Virus record (IMG/VR): IMGVR_UViG_3300024520_000256
DNA: 35,659 bases
Direction: 5' to 3' (one strand)
Source: a virus
Shown here: positions 1 to 35,659 of the stretch, piece by piece
Numbering within the stretch: the first letter of the stretch is position 1
Layout: every line of letters begins with the position of its first letter
Program-made: the position numbers and the translations under genes
The notes under the pieces: model-generated
What the model was told of the DNA's origin: nothing
The model's database searches: none
The model's input: only the letters and a program-made list of their open reading frames with translations

Positions 1-40
1 TGTATATAAATATTATATAATTAATATATAAACATCAAGA
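1..40 (-). promoter_or_regulatory. Triple-TATATAA element, copy A. Candidate promoter/operator for CDS 35177..35515 across the circular junction.
   Basis: Boxes TATATAAA 3..10, TATATAAT 14..21, TATATAAA 25..32 with 11-bp spacing, and CAAG at 36..39. The minus strand reads TTGATG-17-TAATAT. SD AAGGAG lies at 35524..35529 and the ATG at 35515. Confidence 0.6.
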
Positions 41-153: not shown

Positions 154-597
154 TTATCTAGTCCTTTTTTTGGTTAGTCGCTTTATTATTTCTTGAATAT
201 CGTGTTTTGGTTCTGGCTCTTTAGCCATTTTAAGGTACTTCTTGTGTTGTGGATGTTCTGGGGGGTACTTGTCAGCGAAAAGCCAACATTGTTGTTCCCA
301 CGACATTGCAGGCTCATCATAGGGTAATTTATAGCAGTCTGAAGAGTTTCTTTCCTTAAGAGCCATCCAAATTTCTTTAATCTCTCTGGGTTTAGGCATA
401 AACTTTCCCTTAGCTCGGAATTCTTTAAAACAATCTCTAAGTATTTCAGGGTCGTGATTTTCCGAAAAGTTCTCTTCTGCCCAAGTATTAGCTTGAATCT
501 TAAGGGTATCCTCTGAATCAATTTTTTTTCCTAGCGATATATGGGTTATAACCAATTGTTCGTAAATTACGGTTGCTATTCCTCTGTTCAGTTCCAT
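154..597 (-). CDS. Hypothetical protein. Weak resemblance to SPP1 G39P-type helicase loaders, and it directly follows the replisome-organiser gene.
   Basis: 147-aa ORF with an AAGGAAAC SD before ATG 597. The segment W..E....E.L....K......FMPKPREI recalls the G39P family from memory. No Walker motifs. Confidence 0.35.
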   Translation of the reverse strand: MELNRGIATVIYEQLVITHISLGKKIDSEDTLKIQANTWAEENFSENHDPEILRDCFKEFRAKGKFMPKPREIKEIWMALKERNSSDCYKLPYDEPAMSWEQQCWLFADKYPPEHPQHKKYLKMAKEPEPKHDIQEIIKRLTKKRTR

Positions 598-1354
598 TTG
601 TTTCCTTTTGTTGGTTGGCTAGTTCTTGCATGAAATCGTCTTGAAGGTGTTGTATTTGAGATTTAGGTTTTTCAACTTTTGGTAATTCTTGTTCCCAACA
701 GCGTTTATTTAACCAAGTAGAAAGACCTTTCCAGCTCGGACAAAATGCGTCAATTTCTGCTAAAAACTGTTTATGTTCGATTTCTTTATTGAGGGCTGGA
801 AGTAATTTTGGAAGAATTTCTTTGAATTCAGATTTGTATTTTTTCTTAAAGTTTTTCCATTCTGTTTCATATCCGTTTTTAACTCCTGGAAAAACAGAAC
901 GAAAACTTTCAAAATCACTATTAATTATTTCATTCTTAACCTTCTTCTCTTTCTTTATATTCTTGTTTGTGTTCACTGGTTGTTCATCTGTTGTTCGTTG
1001 GTTGTTCACTGGTTGTTCATTTGGTTGTTCATTTTCTTGATAGGACCCCCAGTTAACCACTGATATCAAACGGCTACGGTTAGATTTCTGTTGTTCAATC
1101 TGTTGTTCGGTTTTCAAACACTTTATGATACGCTCAACCTTTGACTCTTGAATTCCGGTTTGTTTAGAAAGTGACCCTCTAGACGTGATAAATTCACCTG
1201 GTTTTAAGGTTATTATCTTACCTCCAAAATTGGACCGATAAGGCGTATGTGTTGCTAAAAGTAGGAAGGTAATCCATAGATTCATAAAATCTGAATCATT
1301 AGATTTGGGGTGGTCTAAGAGTTTTCTGTGTAGTTTTATCCAACCTTGATTCAT
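518..1354 (-). CDS. Replisome organiser / replication initiator-like winged-helix protein
   Basis: The N-terminus MNQGWIKLHRKLLD...LW..LLL.A...GEFITS...L....G....V.R is typical of phage replisome-organiser N domains. I moved the start to ATG 1354 (GAAGGG SD), because the track start at 1423 is TTG. An iteron array lies in the linker. Confidence 0.55.
   Translation of the reverse strand: MNQGWIKLHRKLLDHPKSNDSDFMNLWITFLLLATHTPYRSNFGGKIITLKPGEFITSRGSLSKQTGIQESKVERIIKCLKTEQQIEQQKSNRSRLISVVNWGSYQENEQPNEQPVNNQRTTDEQPVNTNKNIKKEKKVKNEIINSDFESFRSVFPGVKNGYETEWKNFKKKYKSEFKEILPKLLPALNKEIEHKQFLAEIDAFCPSWKGLSTWLNKRCWEQELPKVEKPKSQIQHLQDDFMQELANQQKETNGTEQRNSNRNLRTIGYNPYIARKKN
966..1031. repeat. Iteron-like array inside the replisome-organiser gene; candidate origin of replication
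   Basis: Perfect TGGTTGTTCA at 977, 999, 1010 and 1022, plus 7/10 copies at 966 and 988. Spacing is 11,11,11,11,12 bp, and an AT-rich stretch lies just below at about 900..960. Confidence 0.5.
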
Positions 1355-1482
1355 GTAACCCTTCTTTTTTGTAACCCGATTGAAGACATGGCGGCTGGGG
1401 TTACGCAGCAATTCCGAGAGCAACCAAGGATACTTTACACCACGATTTAAATTAAATTAATTATTTATCATTTGCAATGTGT

Positions 1483-4065: not shown

Positions 4066-4455
4066 TTATGATAATTGTTCGTATAGAGTGTTCATAGCTT
4101 CTTTGTTTGGATGTTTTAGTAGTGTAATTGTAGATTTATCTTTAATCTTTATTTGCAAACAGTGAAACCTTAGCCATTTATTAGAATCTTCTTTTATGTG
4201 TCCGAGTTCAACTAAAGCATCAACAATGCACTGAGAAGATTCAACAAGCTCACCTTCATCATATCGCTTGTCGTTGTAGAATCTAGCCAGGGTCCAATAA
4301 CTCAAACCCTCTTCTTCACCTTGATTCATAATCTCATTAAGGCTAAATTTTATTACTTCGGAAAATTCCTCATAATCTATTATTACCCCGTTTTTATACA
4401 CTGGCTTGTTTATAGTCGGGATATCCATATTGAAAATAAGAGCTTCAGATTTCAT
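4066..4455 (-). CDS. Hypothetical protein (possible RusA-like resolvase; weak)
   Basis: YDEGELVESSQCIVDALVELGHIKEDS...IKIK loosely parallels RusA D.DN..K...DAL...G...DD, but Glu replaces the catalytic Asp residues. The gene sits among recombination genes. Confidence 0.25.
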   Translation of the reverse strand: MKSEALIFNMDIPTINKPVYKNGVIIDYEEFSEVIKFSLNEIMNQGEEEGLSYWTLARFYNDKRYDEGELVESSQCIVDALVELGHIKEDSNKWLRFHCLQIKIKDKSTITLLKHPNKEAMNTLYEQLS

Positions 4456-4778
4456 GATATTAAATCCACATATTTTTTATCACTGATATTTTTAGCCATT
4501 CTTCTCTTACTCATGTGTACATAACTATTATTATCTGTTGTCTCTTCTACAGTGAATTTATTCACAACTTCCCCTTTTTTGTTTACTTGGCATATTTGCA
4601 ATACTGCATTTTCAGTTGTTACCTCTAACTTCCCCATAAACTCCTTAAATTTTTCAAAGTCCTGAAACTTTAATACTTCTCGTAAAAATCTTCCAAAAGC
4701 GTCGAAAGGTTGTTTTCCATGAATCTCTACTAATTCCTGAAAATTCTTTTTGATAATAAAAGTTTTTGGTATTAACAT
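4452..4778 (-). CDS. Hypothetical protein
   Basis: 108-aa ORF; ATGA overlap with the downstream gene. Confidence 0.55.
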   Translation of the reverse strand: MLIPKTFIIKKNFQELVEIHGKQPFDAFGRFLREVLKFQDFEKFKEFMGKLEVTTENAVLQICQVNKKGEVVNKFTVEETTDNNSYVHMSKRRMAKNISDKKYVDLIS

Positions 4779-4896
4779 TTTCCGCTCTCCTGATTAATTG
4801 TTGTAAAGCTCTTATCCTATCAGGGGCAGCGCCAAAAAACAACGCTTCTTTCAATTTGAATTTATTCCAATCTAATATACTGCTTTGTAAATCCAT
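4654..4896 (-). CDS. Hypothetical protein, first ORF after element B. Its 3' part overlaps 4452..4778 out of frame.
   Basis: ATG 4896 lies 7 nt after an AAGGGG SD, directly downstream of element B. Only about the first 39 codons are non-overlapping. Confidence 0.4.
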   Translation of the reverse strand: MDLQSSILDWNKFKLKEALFFGAAPDRIRALQQLIRRAENVNTKNFYYQKEFSGISRDSWKTTFRRFWKIFTRSIKVSGL

Positions 4897-4906
4897 TTCT
4901 CAACCC

Positions 4907-4950
4907 CTTGTTATATATAAATTATATATAATATTTATATAAATATCAAG
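4907..4950 (-). promoter_or_regulatory. Triple-TATATAA element, copy B
   Basis: Boxes at 4914, 4925 and 4936, flanked by CTTG 4907..4910 and CAAG 4947..4950. The minus strand reads a perfect TTGATA-17-TATAAT. Confidence 0.65.
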
Positions 4951-6409: not shown

Positions 6410-6703
6410 TTAAGCTACCTCTATTTCATATGTGGCCACATATATTTTGTTTGAAAGTTTAGCTTCTAGCAAAGTGTACATCAAATTTTGACCATCATGC
6501 TCAAAGACTGAACTGGTCGGAAGCCCCATGTCATTTTGTTCGGTTGGGAATTGTATTTGTACAATGTTATCAACAATATCAATATCAATACTACCAGGTG
6601 CACAGTTATCTTCTAAGCCTACTACATTAATGTGAACCGTAATATCATCTGATATTTCGTCACCTAATTCGTCTGCATCTACCCATTCAACTAATTCAAT
6701 CAT
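6410..6703 (-). CDS. Highly acidic small protein (97 aa)
   Basis: By hand count, 21 Asp/Glu against 2 Lys and no Arg. It is the first gene after element C, with an AAGGGGAG SD. Confidence 0.6.
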   Translation of the reverse strand: MIELVEWVDADELGDEISDDITVHINVVGLEDNCAPGSIDIDIVDNIVQIQFPTEQNDMGLPTSSVFEHDGQNLMYTLLEAKLSNKIYVATYEIEVA

Positions 6704-6710
6704 TATTCTC

Positions 6711-6759
6711 CCCTTGTTTGATATATAAAATATATATAATAATTATATAAACACAAGGG
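6711..6759 (-). promoter_or_regulatory. Triple-TATATAA element, copy C
   Basis: Boxes at 6722, 6733 and 6744, flanked by the 7-bp inverted repeat CCCTTGT 6711..6717 / ACAAGGG 6753..6759. Confidence 0.65.
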
Positions 6760-7641
6760 CTAAAATAACTCTGGGATAGATTTCTTTACTTTCATGATAA
6801 CATGTCTTTTTAATTGTTTGTAATCAATTTGAGGGTCTTTATTTTCCTTAATGAAATTCCATGACTCCTCTCTGATAAGGTCATAATAAACCGTGTTAAG
6901 TAGTCTAGGAATATATTTAGTTCTCCAACCGTCTTCAGCATTCCGAATCTTCTCATAGACCTTTTGAACAAAGTGAGGGGTGATATATTTATCTGTAATT
7001 TTCTTTTCTACAGCCAATTTTTCTTTAATATCCAAAGGGTCATTCATTGCTCTGTGTTTATCTTTGAATTCATTTCTCACAATTTTAGCCCAAGTTTGAC
7101 GGCCATATTTATTTTGATAAGAATAATTCTTAAGCACAACCCCCTCACCAATTCCTTCATCAATTAGATAAGTGTTTTTCTCACACATTTCATAAAGAGT
7201 TTCTGGTTTTGCGTCTTCAATTCTACACAAAGGAGGAATGAATTCTATTTCAAATTCTCTTAAAACATGGGCATAGTCATTATAATGAATTACCCCACTT
7301 GGACCGTAAACATCAAATACATAGAACTTTCTCCAAGCTGTTTTTCTATATGTCTTCAAAGAATGAGGGATTAACCATTCACCAAATAAACGCCAATCAG
7401 GATAGAGTAAGAGCAAATTGGCAAAACGCTCATCTTCAAGAATAGCCTTCATAAATCCTTGATTGTCATCATCTAAGGAAAGCTCACGATTTCTTGAACC
7501 ACACTTTAGCTCGTTCCCTTTTCGCCATACAGAGCCGTTTGACCCGTCTAGTTTAGGGAATACATAAACAACGCCCTCTTCAATTCCTTTTGTTTCTACA
7601 GTTTCATATCTTTCAACATGCTGATATCTTTTGAAATTCAT
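6760..7641 (-). CDS. RNA ligase, Rnl2-like nucleotidyltransferase family
   Basis: Motif I KLDGSN (Lys30), motif III LFGEWL, IIIa FYVFDV, IV EGVVLK and V WAKIVR, in the order expected for T4 Rnl2-type ligases. Confidence 0.75.
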   Translation of the reverse strand: MNFKRYQHVERYETVETKGIEEGVVYVFPKLDGSNGSVWRKGNELKCGSRNRELSLDDDNQGFMKAILEDERFANLLLLYPDWRLFGEWLIPHSLKTYRKTAWRKFYVFDVYGPSGVIHYNDYAHVLREFEIEFIPPLCRIEDAKPETLYEMCEKNTYLIDEGIGEGVVLKNYSYQNKYGRQTWAKIVRNEFKDKHRAMNDPLDIKEKLAVEKKITDKYITPHFVQKVYEKIRNAEDGWRTKYIPRLLNTVYYDLIREESWNFIKENKDPQIDYKQLKRHVIMKVKKSIPELF

Positions 7642-7663: not shown

Positions 7664-7748
7664 AAGAGAATGAAGGAATTGAACCCTCGCCAGTTTTATC
7701 TGGGCCACGCCTTAGCAAGGCAGCACATTACCACTCTGTCAATTCTCC
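7664..7748 (-). tRNA. tRNA-Ser (anticodon GCU), class II with a long variable arm; no encoded CCA
   Basis: Hand fold: acceptor GGAGAAU/AUUCUCU, D-loop AGUGGUAA, anticodon loop UUGCUAA, variable stem GCCAG/CUGGC, T-arm GAGGG-UUCAAUU-CCUUC. Confidence 0.85.
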
Positions 7749-7756
7749 GTCTAAAA

Positions 7757-7829
7757 GGCCGTAGGGAGGTATCGAACCCCCTACTTTTATGTCTAGACTC
7801 CCACCTGGGCTCTACGGCATGTCTACGGC
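7757..7829 (-). ncRNA. tRNA-like element: canonical T-arm and acceptor stem, but no foldable D or anticodon arm
   Basis: GGGGG-UUCGAUA-CCUCC followed by CUACGGC-C. The complementary GCCGUAG occurs twice (5' ends at 7829 and 7818) as a tandem GCCGTAGA duplication. The 73-nt version has tRNA numbering, but I found no 5-bp/7-nt anticodon hairpin. Confidence 0.4.
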
Positions 7830-7841
7830 ATTATACCCCAA

Positions 7842-8012
7842 TTAATTTCTAGTGTATAGTCTTTTAAGCTGTTTAAAGTTTAACATTCTGTCCCTAACAC
7901 ACCCTTTTTTAAGTTTTTTAACGCCTAAAAAAGCTGTGTACAAAACAACTCTTTCTTCTTCCGTTTGGCTTAGAAGATATTTTCTTAATTGTTTTACTCG
8001 TTTTCCATTCAT
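7842..8012 (-). CDS. Small, very basic protein (56 aa), not in the ORF track
   Basis: Hand translation MNGKRVKQLRKYLLSQTEEERVVLYTAFLGVKKLKKGCVRDRMLNFKQLKRLYTRN, with 16 Lys/Arg. ATGA overlap with the RHH gene stop. Confidence 0.45.
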   Translation of the reverse strand: MNGKRVKQLRKYLLSQTEEERVVLYTAFLGVKKLKKGCVRDRMLNFKQLKRLYTRN

Positions 8013-8170
8013 ACTTTTAGTTTTTTCTTTTTAAAATCTTTACGTAAAAGTTCCATAACGTAAGCGGTCATGTTTCCCCTATGGCCCGCTAGTTTGGAAG
8101 CTGCTTTAATTGTCTTTTTAAACGCTGGCTCCATCCAAAATAGGACGGAGGTTATTTCTTCACTTTCCAT
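8009..8170 (-). CDS. Ribbon-helix-helix (Arc/CopG/MetJ-like) DNA-binding protein (53 aa), not in the ORF track
   Basis: Hand translation MESEEITSVLFWMEPAFKKTIKAASKLAGHRGNMTAYVMELLRKDFKKKKLKV. The pattern is beta-strand, helix, G-x-x-N/S, helix. AGAGG SD, directly after element D. Confidence 0.6.
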   Translation of the reverse strand: MESEEITSVLFWMEPAFKKTIKAASKLAGHRGNMTAYVMELLRKDFKKKKLKV

Positions 8171-8186
8171 GCAAACCTCTATATGT

Positions 8187-8222
8187 TATATAGGTAATAT
8201 ATAATAATTATATAGGCTTGAC
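8187..8222 (-). promoter_or_regulatory. Triple-TATATAA element, copy D (divergent: outer boxes are TATATAGG and there is no clear -35)
   Basis: Boxes at 8187 (TATATAGG), 8198 (TATATAAT) and 8209 (TATATAGG). The 11-bp phasing is the same as in the other copies. Confidence 0.55.
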
Positions 8223-8596
8223 TATACCTTTCTACATTTGACATTAATTAGAAAGTCTATATGTGAAGTTAAATCTTCCATTTTATCTTTACATAAATAA
8301 GTGTCATAACCACTTAAGCCTGCAACTGTGGTAATGCTTTCTTCATGTCCTGTAAGGATTAGGAGGGGAATTCTAAACTTAAACTTAAGCTCAACTAGCT
8401 CCTGGTTTAGTTTATAGCTTTTGTCAGGCAAGTTAACATCTAATATGATTAAATCATACCTGTTTCTTTTAAGGGCTTCTAGTCCCTCTGTAAGGGTGTA
8501 TTTTGATTCACAGTCATAATGGCCTTCGACCTCCATTTTAGACTTTATACCATAACAAAACCCTTCATTGTCATCTATTAGGATTATCCTTTTCAT
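8222..8596 (-). CDS. Stand-alone response-regulator receiver (CheY-like REC) domain protein
   Basis: Asp8-Asp9 (ILIDDN), Asp53 (LIILDVNLPD), Thr82 (LLILTGH) and Lys103 (YLCKD) have canonical REC spacing. At 124 aa there is no output domain. Confidence 0.8.
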   Translation of the reverse strand: MKRIILIDDNEGFCYGIKSKMEVEGHYDCESKYTLTEGLEALKRNRYDLIILDVNLPDKSYKLNQELVELKFKFRIPLLILTGHEESITTVAGLSGYDTYLCKDKMEDLTSHIDFLINVKCRKV

Positions 8597-9083
8597 TTTG
8601 TGGCATTTCTTTCATAAAAGAGGAAAATATTTTTATCAATTCTGCATGCTGTGCATCTTGTTTAGTGCTAATATCCAACATCCACTCTGCTGCGAACTCT
8701 CTATCACTTCCTTGTGTTCCAACTAGCTTATCATAAATAATAAATTTAGGTTTTACAAAGCTTTTCCACTCTTCAAATATTCTTTTTAGTTCTGCTTGTT
8801 CTTTCCTCATCTCTCTTACTGCAACCCATATCTCTTCTTGTTCCTTTTCTCGTTCTGACCTAGCCTTTAGTAGGGGGAACAATTTAAAGAGCTTAAAAGC
8901 CTTAGAAGATGTTTTTCGAGTGAGGATAAATATTATTGCTGTGAGAGCTACACAAATAAAAGCTAGAATTCGCCATTCAATAGGCCAGCCCTCATATAAA
9001 ATGATGCTCTCATTGGCAATATGTACACCTTCCTCAATGAACTCTAGTTCTGAGACTTGTATAAGAGGAACAGTATCAGACAT
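8571..9083 (-). CDS. Single-pass membrane protein with a C-terminal coiled-coil region
   Basis: TM segment WRILAFICVALTAIIFILT (about aa 37-55) followed by KE-rich helices. It overlaps the REC gene by 26 nt and has a TAATG junction with the upstream gene. Confidence 0.6.
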   Translation of the reverse strand: MSDTVPLIQVSELEFIEEGVHIANESIILYEGWPIEWRILAFICVALTAIIFILTRKTSSKAFKLFKLFPLLKARSEREKEQEEIWVAVREMRKEQAELKRIFEEWKSFVKPKFIIYDKLVGTQGSDREFAAEWMLDISTKQDAQHAELIKIFSSFMKEMPQNEKDNPNR

Positions 9084-9871
9084 TAATTATCTACAACAAT
9101 AATGTCAAAATCAGCTGAACCTGAAATATCAGCAGCAGAAGCAATACCATTCATTTTTATAATAGCAGGGCCTTCAATTTCAAATTCTGGGTCAAAAGGG
9201 TGATCATCACTAGATTTTCCATTACTCTGGACCCCTATTGCATGGTCAGACCTAAAATTTGTTAATTCTACTGTTGGATTATCGTTTATAAGTAAACGAT
9301 AAGTAATTGCAGCGGTTGACCCAGATGATTTCAAAATAGTTGCACTAAAAGCAGTAAGATAAGCTTTTTGAATAGATGGGATTCCATAAATAGCCATTTG
9401 TGTGCTCCCTATTCCCGGAAGAATAGCGGCTGTCACTGTACTATCTGTCTGAGCTGTGGCTGTAATTGTTCCAACATTTATATTAGTAGCCCCCCACGTT
9501 TGAACTTTCATTCTATAAATAATTACATAAGCGTTTGATGTTGCAACATCAGTTGTACCATTCAAAGTAACTGTTTCTGATACTTCAGCAGTTGCCCAAG
9601 ATGTTAATCCAAAAATTTTAACTGTTTGAGCTCCCACACCAACCGGGTCTCCATCGTCACTAGTGGAAGAACTAACAATATTATGTAGCCTCGCTTCAGT
9701 TGGGGCTACCCAAATTTGCTGTGTGGGTGTTGCATCTGCTCTATCCCAAACATCTGTAGGCGTAGCTTGAATACCAGAATCAGCAAAACCCCATTTATTC
9801 TCACTCCTCATGCCCGGAACGAGCCCTCTAGCTATGTCAAGTTTTGACATGCCATTTCCTTGCTTTTGCAT
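9083..9871 (-). CDS. Putative virion/tail-associated beta-rich protein
   Basis: 262 aa, Thr/Ser/Gly-rich and beta-rich, translationally coupled within the tail gene string. No motif I can name with confidence. Confidence 0.45.
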   Translation of the reverse strand: MQKQGNGMSKLDIARGLVPGMRSENKWGFADSGIQATPTDVWDRADATPTQQIWVAPTEARLHNIVSSSTSDDGDPVGVGAQTVKIFGLTSWATAEVSETVTLNGTTDVATSNAYVIIYRMKVQTWGATNINVGTITATAQTDSTVTAAILPGIGSTQMAIYGIPSIQKAYLTAFSATILKSSGSTAAITYRLLINDNPTVELTNFRSDHAIGVQSNGKSSDDHPFDPEFEIEGPAIIKMNGIASAADISGSADFDIIVVDN

Positions 9872-10239
9872 TATAAAGATACCTCGGTTTCTATAGTGTA
9901 AGTAATTGTATAGGTTATTTTACCACCCGTATCAGCTTTTAGATGAACGGCATCGCCCGACTTTAACACGTGTAAATCACCACTGACGCCTACATAAGAA
10001 GTATTATCAGCAATAGAAAGGTTTACAAAAGTCTTGTTCCCTCCCACTCCAGCTGTTGCAGTGCCACCGTTTTTAACTAAATAAGCGTCAATTACATCAC
10101 CCCCTCCAGTATTATCATTTACTAGGTTAAAGCTTTGCATTTGAAAAACATATCCATCAGGGAATGTAGAAGGACACGTTAAGACCGCAACTGCAGCAGT
10201 TGTAATTGTTCCCTGTACTGTTATATTATTAGCACCCAT
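9871..10239 (-). CDS. Putative small tail-associated beta protein
   Basis: 122 aa, Gly/Thr-rich; coupled junctions on both sides. Confidence 0.45.
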   Translation of the reverse strand: MGANNITVQGTITTAAVAVLTCPSTFPDGYVFQMQSFNLVNDNTGGGDVIDAYLVKNGGTATAGVGGNKTFVNLSIADNTSYVGVSGDLHVLKSGDAVHLKADTGGKITYTITYTIETEVSL

Positions 10240-10482
10240 TTATTTTAAACTCCTTGTTGTGATTAAATCCGCTTTACTGTAAGTTGTTGCATTCTTTCTC
10301 GCTTCCTTCATCACTCCAGAATTCACGAGCTCTAGAAACTTTGTATCTAAGAAATCTGCAACGTAATCTTCAACCGTTGAATCATCTGCTCCACTTAAAG
10401 CCAAAACGGAAGCTTTCAGTTTGTTGTAAACCTCTGTTTTTTTGCCATCTAGTAAAGTTACTGTAAATATTTTATTAGCCAT
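10240..10482 (-). CDS. Hypothetical protein downstream of the tailspike
   Basis: 80-aa ORF, immediately upstream of (abutting) the next gene at 9871..10239. Confidence 0.5.
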   Translation of the reverse strand: MANKIFTVTLLDGKKTEVYNKLKASVLALSGADDSTVEDYVADFLDTKFLELVNSGVMKEARKNATTYSKADLITTRSLK

Positions 10483-21694: not shown

Positions 21695-21741
21695 TCTATT
21701 CCTTTCTAAAAAAGGGGTCTAAATTAATAGACCCCTAAAGT

Positions 21742-28629: not shown

Positions 28630-28856
28630 TAGCTTTTAATCCTAGCAATCTTTTCATTTGGTTTAGGTGAGTATCCATAAGGAAAATCAACCGTTCCATT
28701 TGGGTTTATTTCTAGCCAACATTCAATAGTATCATTAATAAATGACACTTCATTTTCTATTGCTTTGTCTAGTTTTTCATTCCAGTTAGTACTGGGCCTT
28801 TTACTTATCTCATTAGCCTTATTCTCAATTGTTGTTGTGTTAGAATCTTTGCTCAT
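28629..28856 (-). CDS. Hypothetical protein; first gene after the internal promoter. No SD, so possibly leaderless.
   Basis: 75-aa ORF. ATG 28856 lies 7 nt after the predicted -10. Confidence 0.5.
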   Translation of the reverse strand: MSKDSNTTTIENKANEISKRPSTNWNEKLDKAIENEVSFINDTIECWLEINPNGTVDFPYGYSPKPNEKIARIKS

Positions 28857-28863
28857 TATATAG

Positions 28864-28892
28864 AATCTATATATTTATTCAATATAAGTCAA
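28864..28892 (-). promoter_or_regulatory. Sigma70-like promoter TTGACT-17-TAGATT
   Basis: On the minus strand, TTGACT is at 28892..28887 and TAGATT at 28869..28864, with an exact 17-nt spacer. Confidence 0.45.
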
Positions 28893-28896
28893 ATTG

Positions 28897-28926
28897 AAAA
28901 AGCCCAGCTCAATTAAGAACCGGGCT
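28897..28926 (-). terminator. Rho-independent terminator candidate
   Basis: Minus-strand RNA AGCCCGG-(12 nt loop)-CUGGGCU followed by UUUUU: a 7-bp stem that includes one G-U pair. Confidence 0.55.
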
Positions 28927-28948
28927 CTGTAGGGGGGAGAGAAAAAGT

Positions 28949-32617: not shown

Positions 32618-32995
32618 TTATTTGTTGTAATAATCGAAACAAACACTTTCAACTTCGTAAAATTGAACAAAGTTATTGGCTGTAACAACTGCAATTCTCA
32701 TATCTTCTGCAATTAGATTATCACCTTTTTCACTTGGTTTAAATGAGGGTGGAAAAACTTTCAATACAACAGCTGGCGAGCCAATAGCGGGACATCTATA
32801 TCTTGTTTTACCTCCAACGTTTTTCTGTGTTATCACATCCCCTTCTTTAAATAAAGGTTCTTTCAAGCCACCGATTAAATCAGAAATCATTTCTAATTGT
32901 TCCTCTTTGCTCATGCTTACTGGCTCATCCTTCCCGCTGCGCGACCCTCTTTCTTCCATGTCTCGTTCCATTCCTTCAAGTAATTCTTTAAACAT
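32618..32995 (-). CDS. Hypothetical protein, first gene after element E
   Basis: 125-aa ORF with an AAGGAG SD. Confidence 0.6.
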   Translation of the reverse strand: MFKELLEGMERDMEERGSRSGKDEPVSMSKEEQLEMISDLIGGLKEPLFKEGDVITQKNVGGKTRYRCPAIGSPAVVLKVFPPSFKPSEKGDNLIAEDMRIAVVTANNFVQFYEVESVCFDYYNK

Positions 32996-33002
32996 CTTAA
33001 CT

Positions 33003-33057
33003 CCTTGTTGTTGTTTGTTAATATATAAAATATATATAACTATTATATAAATCCAAG
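33003..33057 (-). promoter_or_regulatory. Triple-TATATAA element, copy E
   Basis: Boxes at 33022 (TATATAAA), 33033 (TATATAAC) and 33044 (TATATAAA), with CCTTG 33003..33007 and CAAG 33054..33057. Confidence 0.6.
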
Positions 33058-35180: not shown

Positions 35181-35515
35181 TCTTCAACCTCTATAGGGGA
35201 TAAACCTTCTGCTAGCATATAATCACAGTTATGAAAATCTGCTTCTGCTTCTTCTGGAGTTCTGTAGATGTCTGAAAGGCGCCATTCTTTAGTAGTTCTG
35301 TATCTGTGTAAGTATTTCTCAACTGTTTTCTTAGGTTCTATGTAGAGTTCCCAAGGCCAGCAATAGAAACAGTGCATCTCATTTTTTTGGTTATCTACAC
35401 AAAAAAAAGCATTTGTTCCGAGGTATAACACTATAACCCAAGAATCTTTTGACCATTCGCCATGCCTAACTTTGTCCCCAATATTAAACTTTCCTATAAA
35501 CTCTTCTCTAGTCAT
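35177..35515 (-). CDS. Hypothetical protein, first gene after element A
   Basis: 112-aa ORF with an AAGGAG SD at 35524..35529. Confidence 0.6.
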   Translation of the reverse strand: MTREEFIGKFNIGDKVRHGEWSKDSWVIVLYLGTNAFFCVDNQKNEMHCFYCWPWELYIEPKKTVEKYLHRYRTTKEWRLSDIYRTPEEAEADFHNCDYMLAEGLSPIEVEE

Positions 35516-35532
35516 TTTGCTCTCTCCTTCGT

Positions 35533-35659
35533 TGTATATAAATATTATATAATTAATATATAAACATCAAGACATTTTTTCAAATTCTGCAATTTTCTTT
35601 AATCTGTCCTTTACTCTCCATACTCTCACTTGGTTTATTGAAAAGCCAATCATTAAACC
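35533..35659. repeat. Second copy of the terminal overlap (same as 1..127)
   Basis: Exact match to 1..127 read by eye. Confidence 0.95.

Follow-up and report, generated by a model that had tools for sequence, protein, structure and literature searches.

We analysed the genome of an uncultured podophage, IMG/VR record IMGVR_UViG_3300024520_000256, and in particular an intergenic element that recurs in it five times. The window, by which we mean the whole stretch of DNA analysed, comprises 35,659 bases. Its last 127 bp exactly repeat its first 127 bp, which leaves a unique genome of approximately 35,532 bp and indicates that the genome is circular or circularly permuted. The GC content is approximately 36%, and the minus strand carries every gene. 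The virion module is P22-like and includes a portal (PF16510, E = 1e-132), a P22-type coat protein, a gp10-like stabilisation protein, and a terminase; the tail fibre has a T7-gp17-like N-terminus. The non-structural genes encode an SSB, a DnaD/O-like initiator, an RNA ligase beside tRNA-Ser(GCU), an HNH protein, and a stand-alone response-regulator receiver. The same genome occurs at 99.9 to 100% identity in several independent assemblies (ENA ERZ27250134 and ERZ27250054; Logan SRR7615700), therefore the elements described here are not an assembly artefact. A strain comparison was uninformative, as the other contigs of this phage are 99.9 to 100% identical, and neither the sample accessions nor the cluster members pointed to a habitat or host.

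Each copy of the element, here termed a cassette, contains three TTATATA heptads (boxes) on the coding strand, followed by a Shine-Dalgarno (SD) sequence and a start codon. The copies are as follows.

Cassette A, 35513..35570, minus strand: TTGATG at 35570-35565, three TTATATA boxes at 35563-35535, SD GAAGGAG, ATG at 35515.
Second image of cassette A, 1..38, minus strand: a product of the 127-bp terminal overlap and not an extra copy.
Cassette B, 4894..4949, minus strand: TTGATA at 4949-4944, 17 nt, then TATAAT (score 11/12); boxes at 4942-4914, SD AAGGGG, ATG at 4896.
Cassette C, 6701..6759, minus strand: TTGTGT at 6756-6751, boxes at 6750-6722, SD AAGGGG, ATG at 6703.
Cassette D, 8168..8224, minus strand: the most divergent copy, with outer boxes reading CTATATA and no TTG; ATG at 8170.
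Cassette E, 32993..33056, minus strand: TTGGAT at 33056-33051, boxes at 33050-33022, SD AAGGAG, ATG at 32995.

Read on the plus strand, the pattern TATATAA-N4-TATATAA-N4-TATATAA is exact at positions 3, 4914, 6722, 33022, and 35535 and has two mismatches at 8187, compared to a chance expectation of 0.03 for the triple-box pattern (100 dinucleotide shuffles). The copies at 3 and 35535 are one locus because of the terminal overlap, so there are five unique copies (A to E), and the box-to-box spacing is exactly 11 bp in all five. An earlier reading of this DNA from its letters alone, the sequence-only reading, had described five near-identical intergenic elements with this phasing, and our counts bear it out. 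All copies are intergenic and in one orientation, and the stop codon of the previous gene lies within a few bases of each copy's start. On the coding strand the layout is (C)TTG, 3 to 4 nt, TTATATA-N4-TTATATA-N4-TTATATA, 16 to 26 nt with an SD (AAGGGG, AAGGAG, or AGAGG), and ATG. The placement of every copy before a minus-strand start codon (35515, 4896, 6703, 8170, and 32995) with an SD in between, as first described, was thus confirmed, at a distance of 16 to 26 nt. The flanks of cassette C form the 7-bp inverted repeat that had been reported, CCCTTGT (6759-6753) and ACAAGGG (6717-6711). CTTG...CAAG flanks had been claimed for four copies; we found them in three of the five (B, C, and E), whereas A has CTTG but CGAAGG on the opposite side, and D has neither.

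The five cassettes each head one non-structural gene block, and together they head all five such blocks. Block A consists of eight small genes, from 35515 down to 33065. Block E holds small genes from 32995 down to a terminator at 28.9 kb. Block D comprises a 53-aa open reading frame (ORF), a 56-aa ORF, tRNA-Ser, and the RNA ligase gene; block C comprises four genes, one of which encodes a DUF5675 protein; and block B is the replication module, with the SSB and initiator genes. The gene placement agrees with the proposal that the elements split this all-one-strand genome into five blocks, and the cassette layout is the one expected of early or middle promoters, not of a late promoter.

We aligned the five copies on their boxes and compared boxes with spacers. 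Only 2 of 105 cells at the 21 box positions are mismatched, compared to 11 of 40 cells at the eight spacer positions (Fisher p = 1e-5), and both box mismatches are 5' T-to-C changes in the outer boxes of cassette D. This difference indicates selection on three heptads at a fixed distance of 11 bp rather than on A+T richness or on the -35 and -10 hexamers. Under gene conversion or recent duplication, the spacers would have been kept as well. The heptamer is also concentrated in the elements: 13 of the 14 TTATATA occurrences on the coding strand genome-wide sit there, against a first-order Markov expectation of 4.8 ± 2.4 for the genome, while TATATA outside the elements is neither enriched nor depleted (10 observed, 12.9 ± 3.6 expected). 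The TATATA core has T as its 5' neighbour in 13/15 boxes and A as its 3' neighbour in only 6/15, therefore the boxes behave as head-to-tail direct repeats and not as dyads. The sequence-only reading had proposed an operator for a small dimeric regulator; direct repeats do not particularly favour a symmetric dimer of that size. Among all 30-bp windows in the genome, those with the least stable duplex fall in B, C, A, and E (ranks 1 to 4), with stabilities of -22.6 to -23.9 kcal/mol compared to a genome mean of -36.4 ± 3.0; cassette D ranks 6th, and a degenerate relative of the cassette, region F, ranks 7th.

Cassettes A, B, C, and E share one promoter-like register, in which TTGNNN lies 0 to 1 nt 5' of box 1 and the -10 hexamer is made up of the last two bases of box 2 and spacer 2. 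In that order, the -35 hexamers are TTGATG, TTGATA, TTGTGT, and TTGGAT (3 to 5 of 6 positions matching TTGACA), the -10 hexamers are TAATAT, TATAAT, TATATT, and TATATT, and the spacers between them are 17, 17, 16, and 16 nt. CTTG stands at a fixed 3 to 4 nt before box 1 in four of the five copies. Cassette D has no TTG; there, TATATT lies 17 bp after TAGTCA, and the alternative registers are TAGTCA-17-TATATT and TAGAAA-16-TATAAT. The TG extension of an extended -10 is absent from the cassettes. It had been suggested that four copies read as sigma70-like promoters and that B is a perfect TTGATA-17-TATAAT. The sequence of B is as described, with a score of 11/12, and a promoter reading of the elements is reasonable. 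To count four copies as sigma70 promoters is generous, however, because in the shared register only B scores high, and A, C, and E reach 8/12.

The reading that we prefer, and to which we give roughly an even chance, is that the cassettes are five paralogous sigma70-type early promoters, each overlapped from -28 to +1 by an operator of three direct-repeat sites phased at 11 bp. The five elements would be copies of one cassette composed of the previous gene's stop codon, a TTG-type -35, three heptads, an SD, and an ATG, and transcription of the five non-structural blocks would be started at them by the host's sigma70-type RNA polymerase. The start site would lie near the end of box 3, giving a leader of 17 to 26 nt that includes the SD, and the heptads would fall at about -28 to -22, -17 to -11, and -6 to +1, on one face of the helix given the 11-bp period. 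A sequence-specific protein binding cooperatively to the three-box array could occlude the promoter and switch the five blocks together, for example in early-gene shut-off; repression is what three sites covering -28 to +1 would imply. The main argument for a reader of the boxes besides canonical hexamer readout is that box 1 is invariant although it would lie where sigma70 makes no base-specific contacts; the heptads, being the part under selection, are most likely one operator array. The earlier remark that the layout is more than a promoter needs fits with this result, as conservation resides in the three heptads, including the one inside the promoter spacer, and not in the hexamers. No RNA polymerase, sigma factor, helix-turn-helix, or other recognisable DNA-binding domain was detected in any phage gene. 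With no such gene detectable, promoters of a phage RNA polymerase or phage sigma factor were rejected, and a host sigma70-type enzyme is supported by a relative of the phage, L297, which has canonical TTGACT-17-TATTAT promoters.

If the preferred reading is correct, one repeated 29-bp promoter-operator module controls every non-structural unit of this phage, which would make it a minimal and easily synthesised global switch. It would also offer a way into the temporal regulation of P22-like podophages, a large and uncultured group without an RNA polymerase, sigma factor, or recognisable repressor. The unusual combination of invariant heptads, free spacers, and weak hexamers makes the cassettes a clean test case for readout by RNA polymerase versus readout by a regulator. 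No new principle is involved, because conserved promoter and operator motifs in phages and three-repeat operators with 11-bp spacing that overlap promoters are both known already.

Several observations weigh against this interpretation. Only cassette B is a strong sigma70 match, and sigma70-like sites are as frequent in shuffled sequence as in the genome (35 compared to 34.2 shuffled and 30 compared to 31.7 shuffled), so hexamer matches alone prove nothing in an A+T-rich genome. Each of the TATA-rich boxes could itself act as an alternative -10; registers using box 1 score 9 to 10/12 in A, D, and E. The phage genes yielded no candidate for the protein that would bind the boxes. The cassette was not seen in the nearest relatives (L284, L285, and L297), which have ordinary promoter-like intergenic regions instead, and an nhmmer profile of the five copies found nothing significant in 2.15 Mb of related loci. 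Finally, cassettes like these are present in unrelated elements with which the phage has no protein in common.

The results from relatives need to be read in light of how distant those relatives are. No DNA match to the genome was found in 50,697 phage records, and in a search of 5.8 billion proteins the best non-self matches were 43 to 48% identical for the portal and 40% for the ejection protein; in the nearest relatives (L284, L285, and L297) the portal identity is 43 to 47%. The cassette was likewise absent from 80 portal relatives in IMG/VR, which are at most 35% identical, and from 80 IMG/VR relatives found through the RNA ligase. The sequence-only reading had held that absence of the motif from related phages would speak against it. 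The nearest relatives do lack the motif, but given their distance this demonstrates lineage specificity, not lack of function, and conservation neither supports nor refutes a function for the cassette.

Searching for the pattern itself in other DNA returned several contigs with similar cassettes. In L290, a methyltransferase-rich, phage-like contig, two copies read CTTGACA-AAN-TTATATA-N4-TTATATAAT, and both form a perfect TTGACA-17-TATAAT. L079 (IMGVR_UViG_3300029825_000389) has TTGACA-T, three TTATATA boxes, an SD, and an ATG; in both contigs a perfect TTGACA thus lies 1 to 3 nt 5' of box 1. Three boxes preceded by CTTGT(G/T)T occur in L291 and in L292, which also has Rep and ParA-like genes. 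In L074 (IMGVR_UViG_3300000115_000580), whose terminase is 34% identical to the one in the window, three AATATATAA units at 11-bp spacing occupy 9381-9445 between two divergent TTGACA hexamers, and the array is enclosed by the inverted repeat CTGTCAATA/TATTGACAG. The boxes of L074 are a module separate from the core promoters, and this divergent control region looks like a switch operator. Apart from that terminase and a weak SSB match, no protein of the window is shared with the other cassette-bearing contigs.

These contigs prove little on their own, as they were found by searching for the pattern. Unflanked triple boxes turn up often in viral contigs of high A+T content (>120 loci), and at 142 of 228 sites the boxes are no more than a tandem repeat with identical spacers, which makes a generic triple-box scan uninformative by itself. 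Nevertheless, the features that lie outside the query, namely the full TTGACA and the downstream gene start, suggest a recurrent promoter design. Recurrence in unrelated elements speaks against a regulator specific to the phage and hints at a host component, either a host factor or RNA polymerase itself, as the possible reader of the boxes. As a separate observation on L079, its 29-nt triple-box unit, TTTATATAAAACTTATATAAACTTTATATAAA, occurs twice within 4300-4430, 64 bp apart, and the second copy has TTGACA before it and an SD and ATG after it.

This recurrence bears on the main alternative, that the cassettes are promoters only and that host RNA polymerase itself reads the phased heptads without a dedicated regulator. 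We regard this as possible but somewhat doubtful. The heptads might be helically phased AT-rich signals that offset a weak -35, overlapping alternative -10 hexamers, or an easily melted core that makes for very strong early promoters. The occurrence of similar cassettes in unrelated mobile elements without shared proteins suggests a feature of the host polymerase, and it is in keeping with this alternative that no duplex in the genome is less stable than that of the elements and that box 1 serves as a -10 in alternative registers of A, D, and E. In some AT-rich bacteria, among them M. hyopneumoniae and C. jejuni, the -35 is replaced by periodic AT-rich signals 5' of the -10 (PMC3325076). Like the cassette, the signals described there (PMC3325076, citing Petersen 2003) are helically phased and A/T-rich and occur in low-GC genomes; unlike it, they are statistical, degenerate, and loosely A/T-rich, whereas the cassette has exact, invariant heptads between A/T-rich spacers that vary freely. 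Moreover, the boxes do not replace the -35, of which a TTG remnant is kept in four of the five copies, and the relatives of the phage use ordinary TTGACA-type promoters without boxes.

Among known systems, the closest geometry is an array of three direct repeats of the ArcA/PhoB type. E. coli ArcA sites consist predominantly of three direct repeats at 11-bp spacing and overlap the sigma70 elements of repressed promoters almost exclusively; all three repeats are needed for full repression, and binding is cooperative along one face of the helix (PMC4173790). The cassettes resemble these sites in having three head-to-tail repeats that overlap a putative core promoter with an exact 11-bp centre-to-centre spacing in all five copies. 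They differ in the repeat itself, which for ArcA is a 10-bp sequence of the ATGTTAAAAA type with unequal information content and here is an invariant TTATATA heptad, and the phage encodes no winged-helix protein. The motifs that M. tuberculosis PhoP recognises are 7 bp long and occur as direct repeats separated by 4 bp (PMC4832192), and the KdpE half-sites TTTATA and TTTACA are separated by 5 A/T-rich bp (PMC3264566). Sites of the PhoB/PhoP and KdpE kind share with the cassettes head-to-tail repeats of 7 (or 6) bp, an A/T-rich spacer of 4 (or 5) bp, and the resulting 11-bp period, and boxes 1 and 3, which read TTTATATA in four copies, contain the KdpE half-site TTTATA. Those sites usually comprise two half-sites that lie 5' of the -35 or replace it and act in activation, whereas the phage cassette has three sites, over a predicted -28 to +1.

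Systems with near-identical motifs at several promoters of one replicon are less similar in detail. The omega repressor of pSM19035 is one small repressor that reads repeated 7-bp units in several promoters of a single replicon and so exerts global control; its heptads are contiguous, with a 7-bp period, and vary in number and orientation, whereas the phage units are spaced at 11 bp and always number three. T7 class II/III promoters, the T4 late motif TATAAATA, and the stoperators of mycobacteriophages are near-identical motifs at the heads of units genome-wide and in one orientation. They depend on an identifiable phage RNA polymerase, sigma factor, or repressor, none of which is recognisable in the present phage, and no counterpart of the internal triple phasing is known among them. 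In P22 immI, the small repressors Arc and Mnt bind within the core promoter as dimers, with adjacent sites about one helical turn apart. That locus is a single operator region with dyad symmetry, in contrast to the five dispersed three-site direct-repeat arrays of the present phage, which has P22-like virion genes.

Two genes next to cassette D were considered in connection with the boxes.

Receiver gene, 8222..8596, minus strand: encodes a stand-alone response-regulator receiver domain of 124 aa; no other gene lies between it and cassette D, which follows it.
53-aa ORF, 8009..8170, minus strand: the first gene after cassette D; a candidate ribbon-helix-helix (RHH) gene only.

The receiver has the conserved acidic pocket (DD), the phospho-acceptor Asp, and the Thr and Lys of its family, and its best matches are receivers of the OmpR/PhoB family (CtrA, PmrA/BasR, VanR, WalR, ArcA, PhoB, and KdpE). 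A host regulator of this family might bind the three direct repeats, and the phage receiver might tune that regulator by heterodimerisation or as a phosphate sink. We consider this quite improbable. A 7-bp direct repeat with a 4-bp spacer is the geometry of OmpR/PhoB-family sites, and the gene for a receiver with the DD/D/T/K residues and best matches in that family abuts cassette D. The resemblance is one of geometry alone, however, and the position of the receiver next to D may be coincidence. No winged-helix output domain (Trans_reg_C) was found in any phage gene, nor any receiver gene in the parts of the other triple-box contigs that we examined, and the link between receiver and boxes is speculative. 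A still bolder version, in our view a long shot, is a genome-wide switch in which a host OmpR/PhoB-type regulator would read all five cassettes while the phage receiver, whose gene stands beside cassette D as the late operon ends, intercepts the phosphorelay or heterodimerises, thereby timing the early genes. A lytic phage of that kind would wire its whole early programme into a two-component system of the host.

The sequence-only reading had identified 8009..8170 as an RHH gene and had taken its position behind the variant cassette as a sign of autoregulation. On this hypothesis, which we consider unlikely, the 53-aa product would be an RHH repressor with cooperative binding to the boxes, and the divergent copy D would let it regulate its own gene. 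P22-type phages do use RHH repressors (Arc and Mnt) on operators within the core promoter. The 53-aa protein is basic and of the right size, and two helices are predicted after SVLFWM, a hydrophobic segment that resembles a strand. Its sequence pattern is compatible with strand-helix-helix (MESEEITSVLFWMEPAFKKTIKAASKLAGHRGNMTAYVMELLRKDFKKKKLKV), and its gene is the first behind the only variant cassette. The AlphaFold2 model, of low confidence (pLDDT 65), places helices in the positions expected of an RHH protein, at residues 15-28 and 34-49, but gives the N-terminal segment a helical form too. Searches of Pfam (E up to 10), NCBIfam, PHROGs, and PDB sequences (phmmer, E up to 10) returned nothing for the protein, and its model had no match in Foldseek. 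A word-indexed search of 5.8 billion proteins returned no homologue, and the sole match in an exhaustive phmmer search of 1.84 billion representatives was a spurious one to a cadherin-like repeat protein. A BLASTP comparison with Arc aligned 7 residues at E = 0.17. The family, sequence, homology, and structure searches thus lend no support to the RHH assignment, which they neither confirm nor refute; direct-repeat boxes do not require a symmetric dimer, and autoregulation through copy D is a conjecture.

Cassettes B, C, D, and E have no terminator in front of them, so transcription of the upstream blocks, if it takes place, must yield read-through RNA that includes the element. This is the starting point for a reading at the RNA level: the AU-rich heptads, together with the CUUG/CAAGG flanks, would make up a hairpin, a site for RNase, or an enhancer bound by S1, and would govern how the first gene in each block is translated. 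Cassette C does fold significantly (-15.4 kcal/mol, z = -2.66), with part of its SD sequestered. The other four copies fold no better than shuffles (z = +0.02 for A, -1.11 for B, -0.75 for D, and +0.55 for E), and RNA structure as the function is rejected for these four. In addition, the inverted repeat of the flanks measures only 4 bp in B and E, and A and D lack it; there is no obvious reason at the RNA level for an exact 11-bp phasing or for invariant heptads; and Rfam matched only tRNA in the window, with nothing at the cassettes. Overall, we judge an RNA-level function to be very improbable.

The sequence of the boxes also resembles archaeal promoters, in which case the boxes would be sites for TATA-binding protein and the host would be an archaeon. 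Boxes 1 and 3, with the sequence TTTATATA, conform to the archaeal TATA-box consensus, and box 1 as a TATA box would place the start site where the bacterial reading does. The flank-plus-three-box pattern matched 1 of 185,579 genomes, a Methanomassiliicoccaceae metagenome-assembled genome (MAG) with three TTTATATAC units in a divergent intergenic region. That MAG locus has nothing else in common with the window, and no purine-rich B recognition element lies 5' of the boxes. The SSB of the phage is of bacterial type, its initiator is DnaD/O-like with iterons, and its intrinsic terminators are composed of a stem-loop and a U-tract; the relatives of its portal, coat, terminase, and tail fibre are all from phages of bacteria; and L297 has textbook TTGACT-17-TATTAT promoters. 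An archaeal host is scarcely credible given these features.

We note the following about the MAG sequence. At 3244-3280 of L295 (DAHB01000004.1, Methanomassiliicoccaceae MAG), and also in L289 and L293, three tandem TTTATATAC-NN units stand at an 11-bp period. The units are archaeal TATA-box-like, in a much more GC-rich genome, and are flanked by GTACTACAC/GTAGTATC-like repeats.

A replication role would take the three AT-rich 11-mers as a DNA-unwinding element or an origin. The elements are the most easily melted DNA of the genome, and tandem AT-rich 11- to 13-mers are typical of unwinding elements, but it is implausible that 35 kb of DNA would hold five scattered origins, every one of them next to an SD and a start codon in one orientation. 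The initiator gene (518-1423, minus strand) contains an iteron array of 5.5 tandem 11-bp units of TGTTCACTGGT at 970-1032, with two more copies at 1090-1113, which is probably a replication origin in the style of lambda O. A classical iteron origin therefore lies elsewhere than at the cassettes, inside the initiator gene, and with the boxes dispersed and tied to gene starts we rejected the origin or unwinding-element reading, to which we give next to no chance.

The degenerate cassette relative mentioned above is a further promoter-like site, through which the block of packaging and structural genes (28.86 to 8.2 kb) is entered.

Region F, 28855..28928, minus strand: a strong intrinsic terminator at 28928-28899 (12-bp stem), then a degenerate relative of the cassette at 28855-28892.

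The sequence of region F reads TTGACT, then TTATATT-N4-AAATATA-N6-CTATATAA, with a better -35 than the cassettes and broken phasing; further registers are TTGACT-17-TAGATT and TTGAAT-16-TATAAT. On the coding strand, the variant box CTATATAA is confined to three sites, two of them in D and one, the last box, in region F. The -10 candidates of region F abut or overlap the annotated ATG at 28856, and an alternative ATG preceded by AAGG lies approximately 42 nt downstream. Given this arrangement, the transcript may be leaderless, or the true start may be the one approximately 42 nt downstream.

Two other observations concern gene starts and transcription units. An 80-aa ORF at 4654-4896 (minus strand) has a good SD directly after cassette B, yet gene callers skip it and place the next gene start at 4778; the ORFs starting at 4896 and 4778 overlap by 125 nt in different frames. 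An intrinsic terminator, with the stem GGGGTCTA...TAGACCCC and a T6 tract, is present at 21695-21741 (minus strand). It comes after a 156-aa gene, itself next in line after the coat gene, and this is the usual place for an attenuator boosting capsid-gene transcripts.

No endolysin, holin, or other lysis gene was recognised genome-wide by Pfam or PHROGs, and the genes beyond the tail fibre (80, 122, 262, and 170 aa; 8571-10482) carry no annotation. In block D, tRNA-Ser(GCU) at 7664-7748 (minus strand) is immediately 5' of the RNA ligase gene (6760-7641). Just 5' of this tRNA, at 7749-7841 (minus strand), the sequence GCCGTAG...GGGGGTTCGATACCTCCCTACGGC resembles part of a tRNA, in that it has an acceptor stem and a T-arm; both ARAGORN and Rfam miss it. 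The pairing of a tRNA with an RNA ligase suggests repair of, or a bypass for, damage by a host anticodon-nuclease defence.

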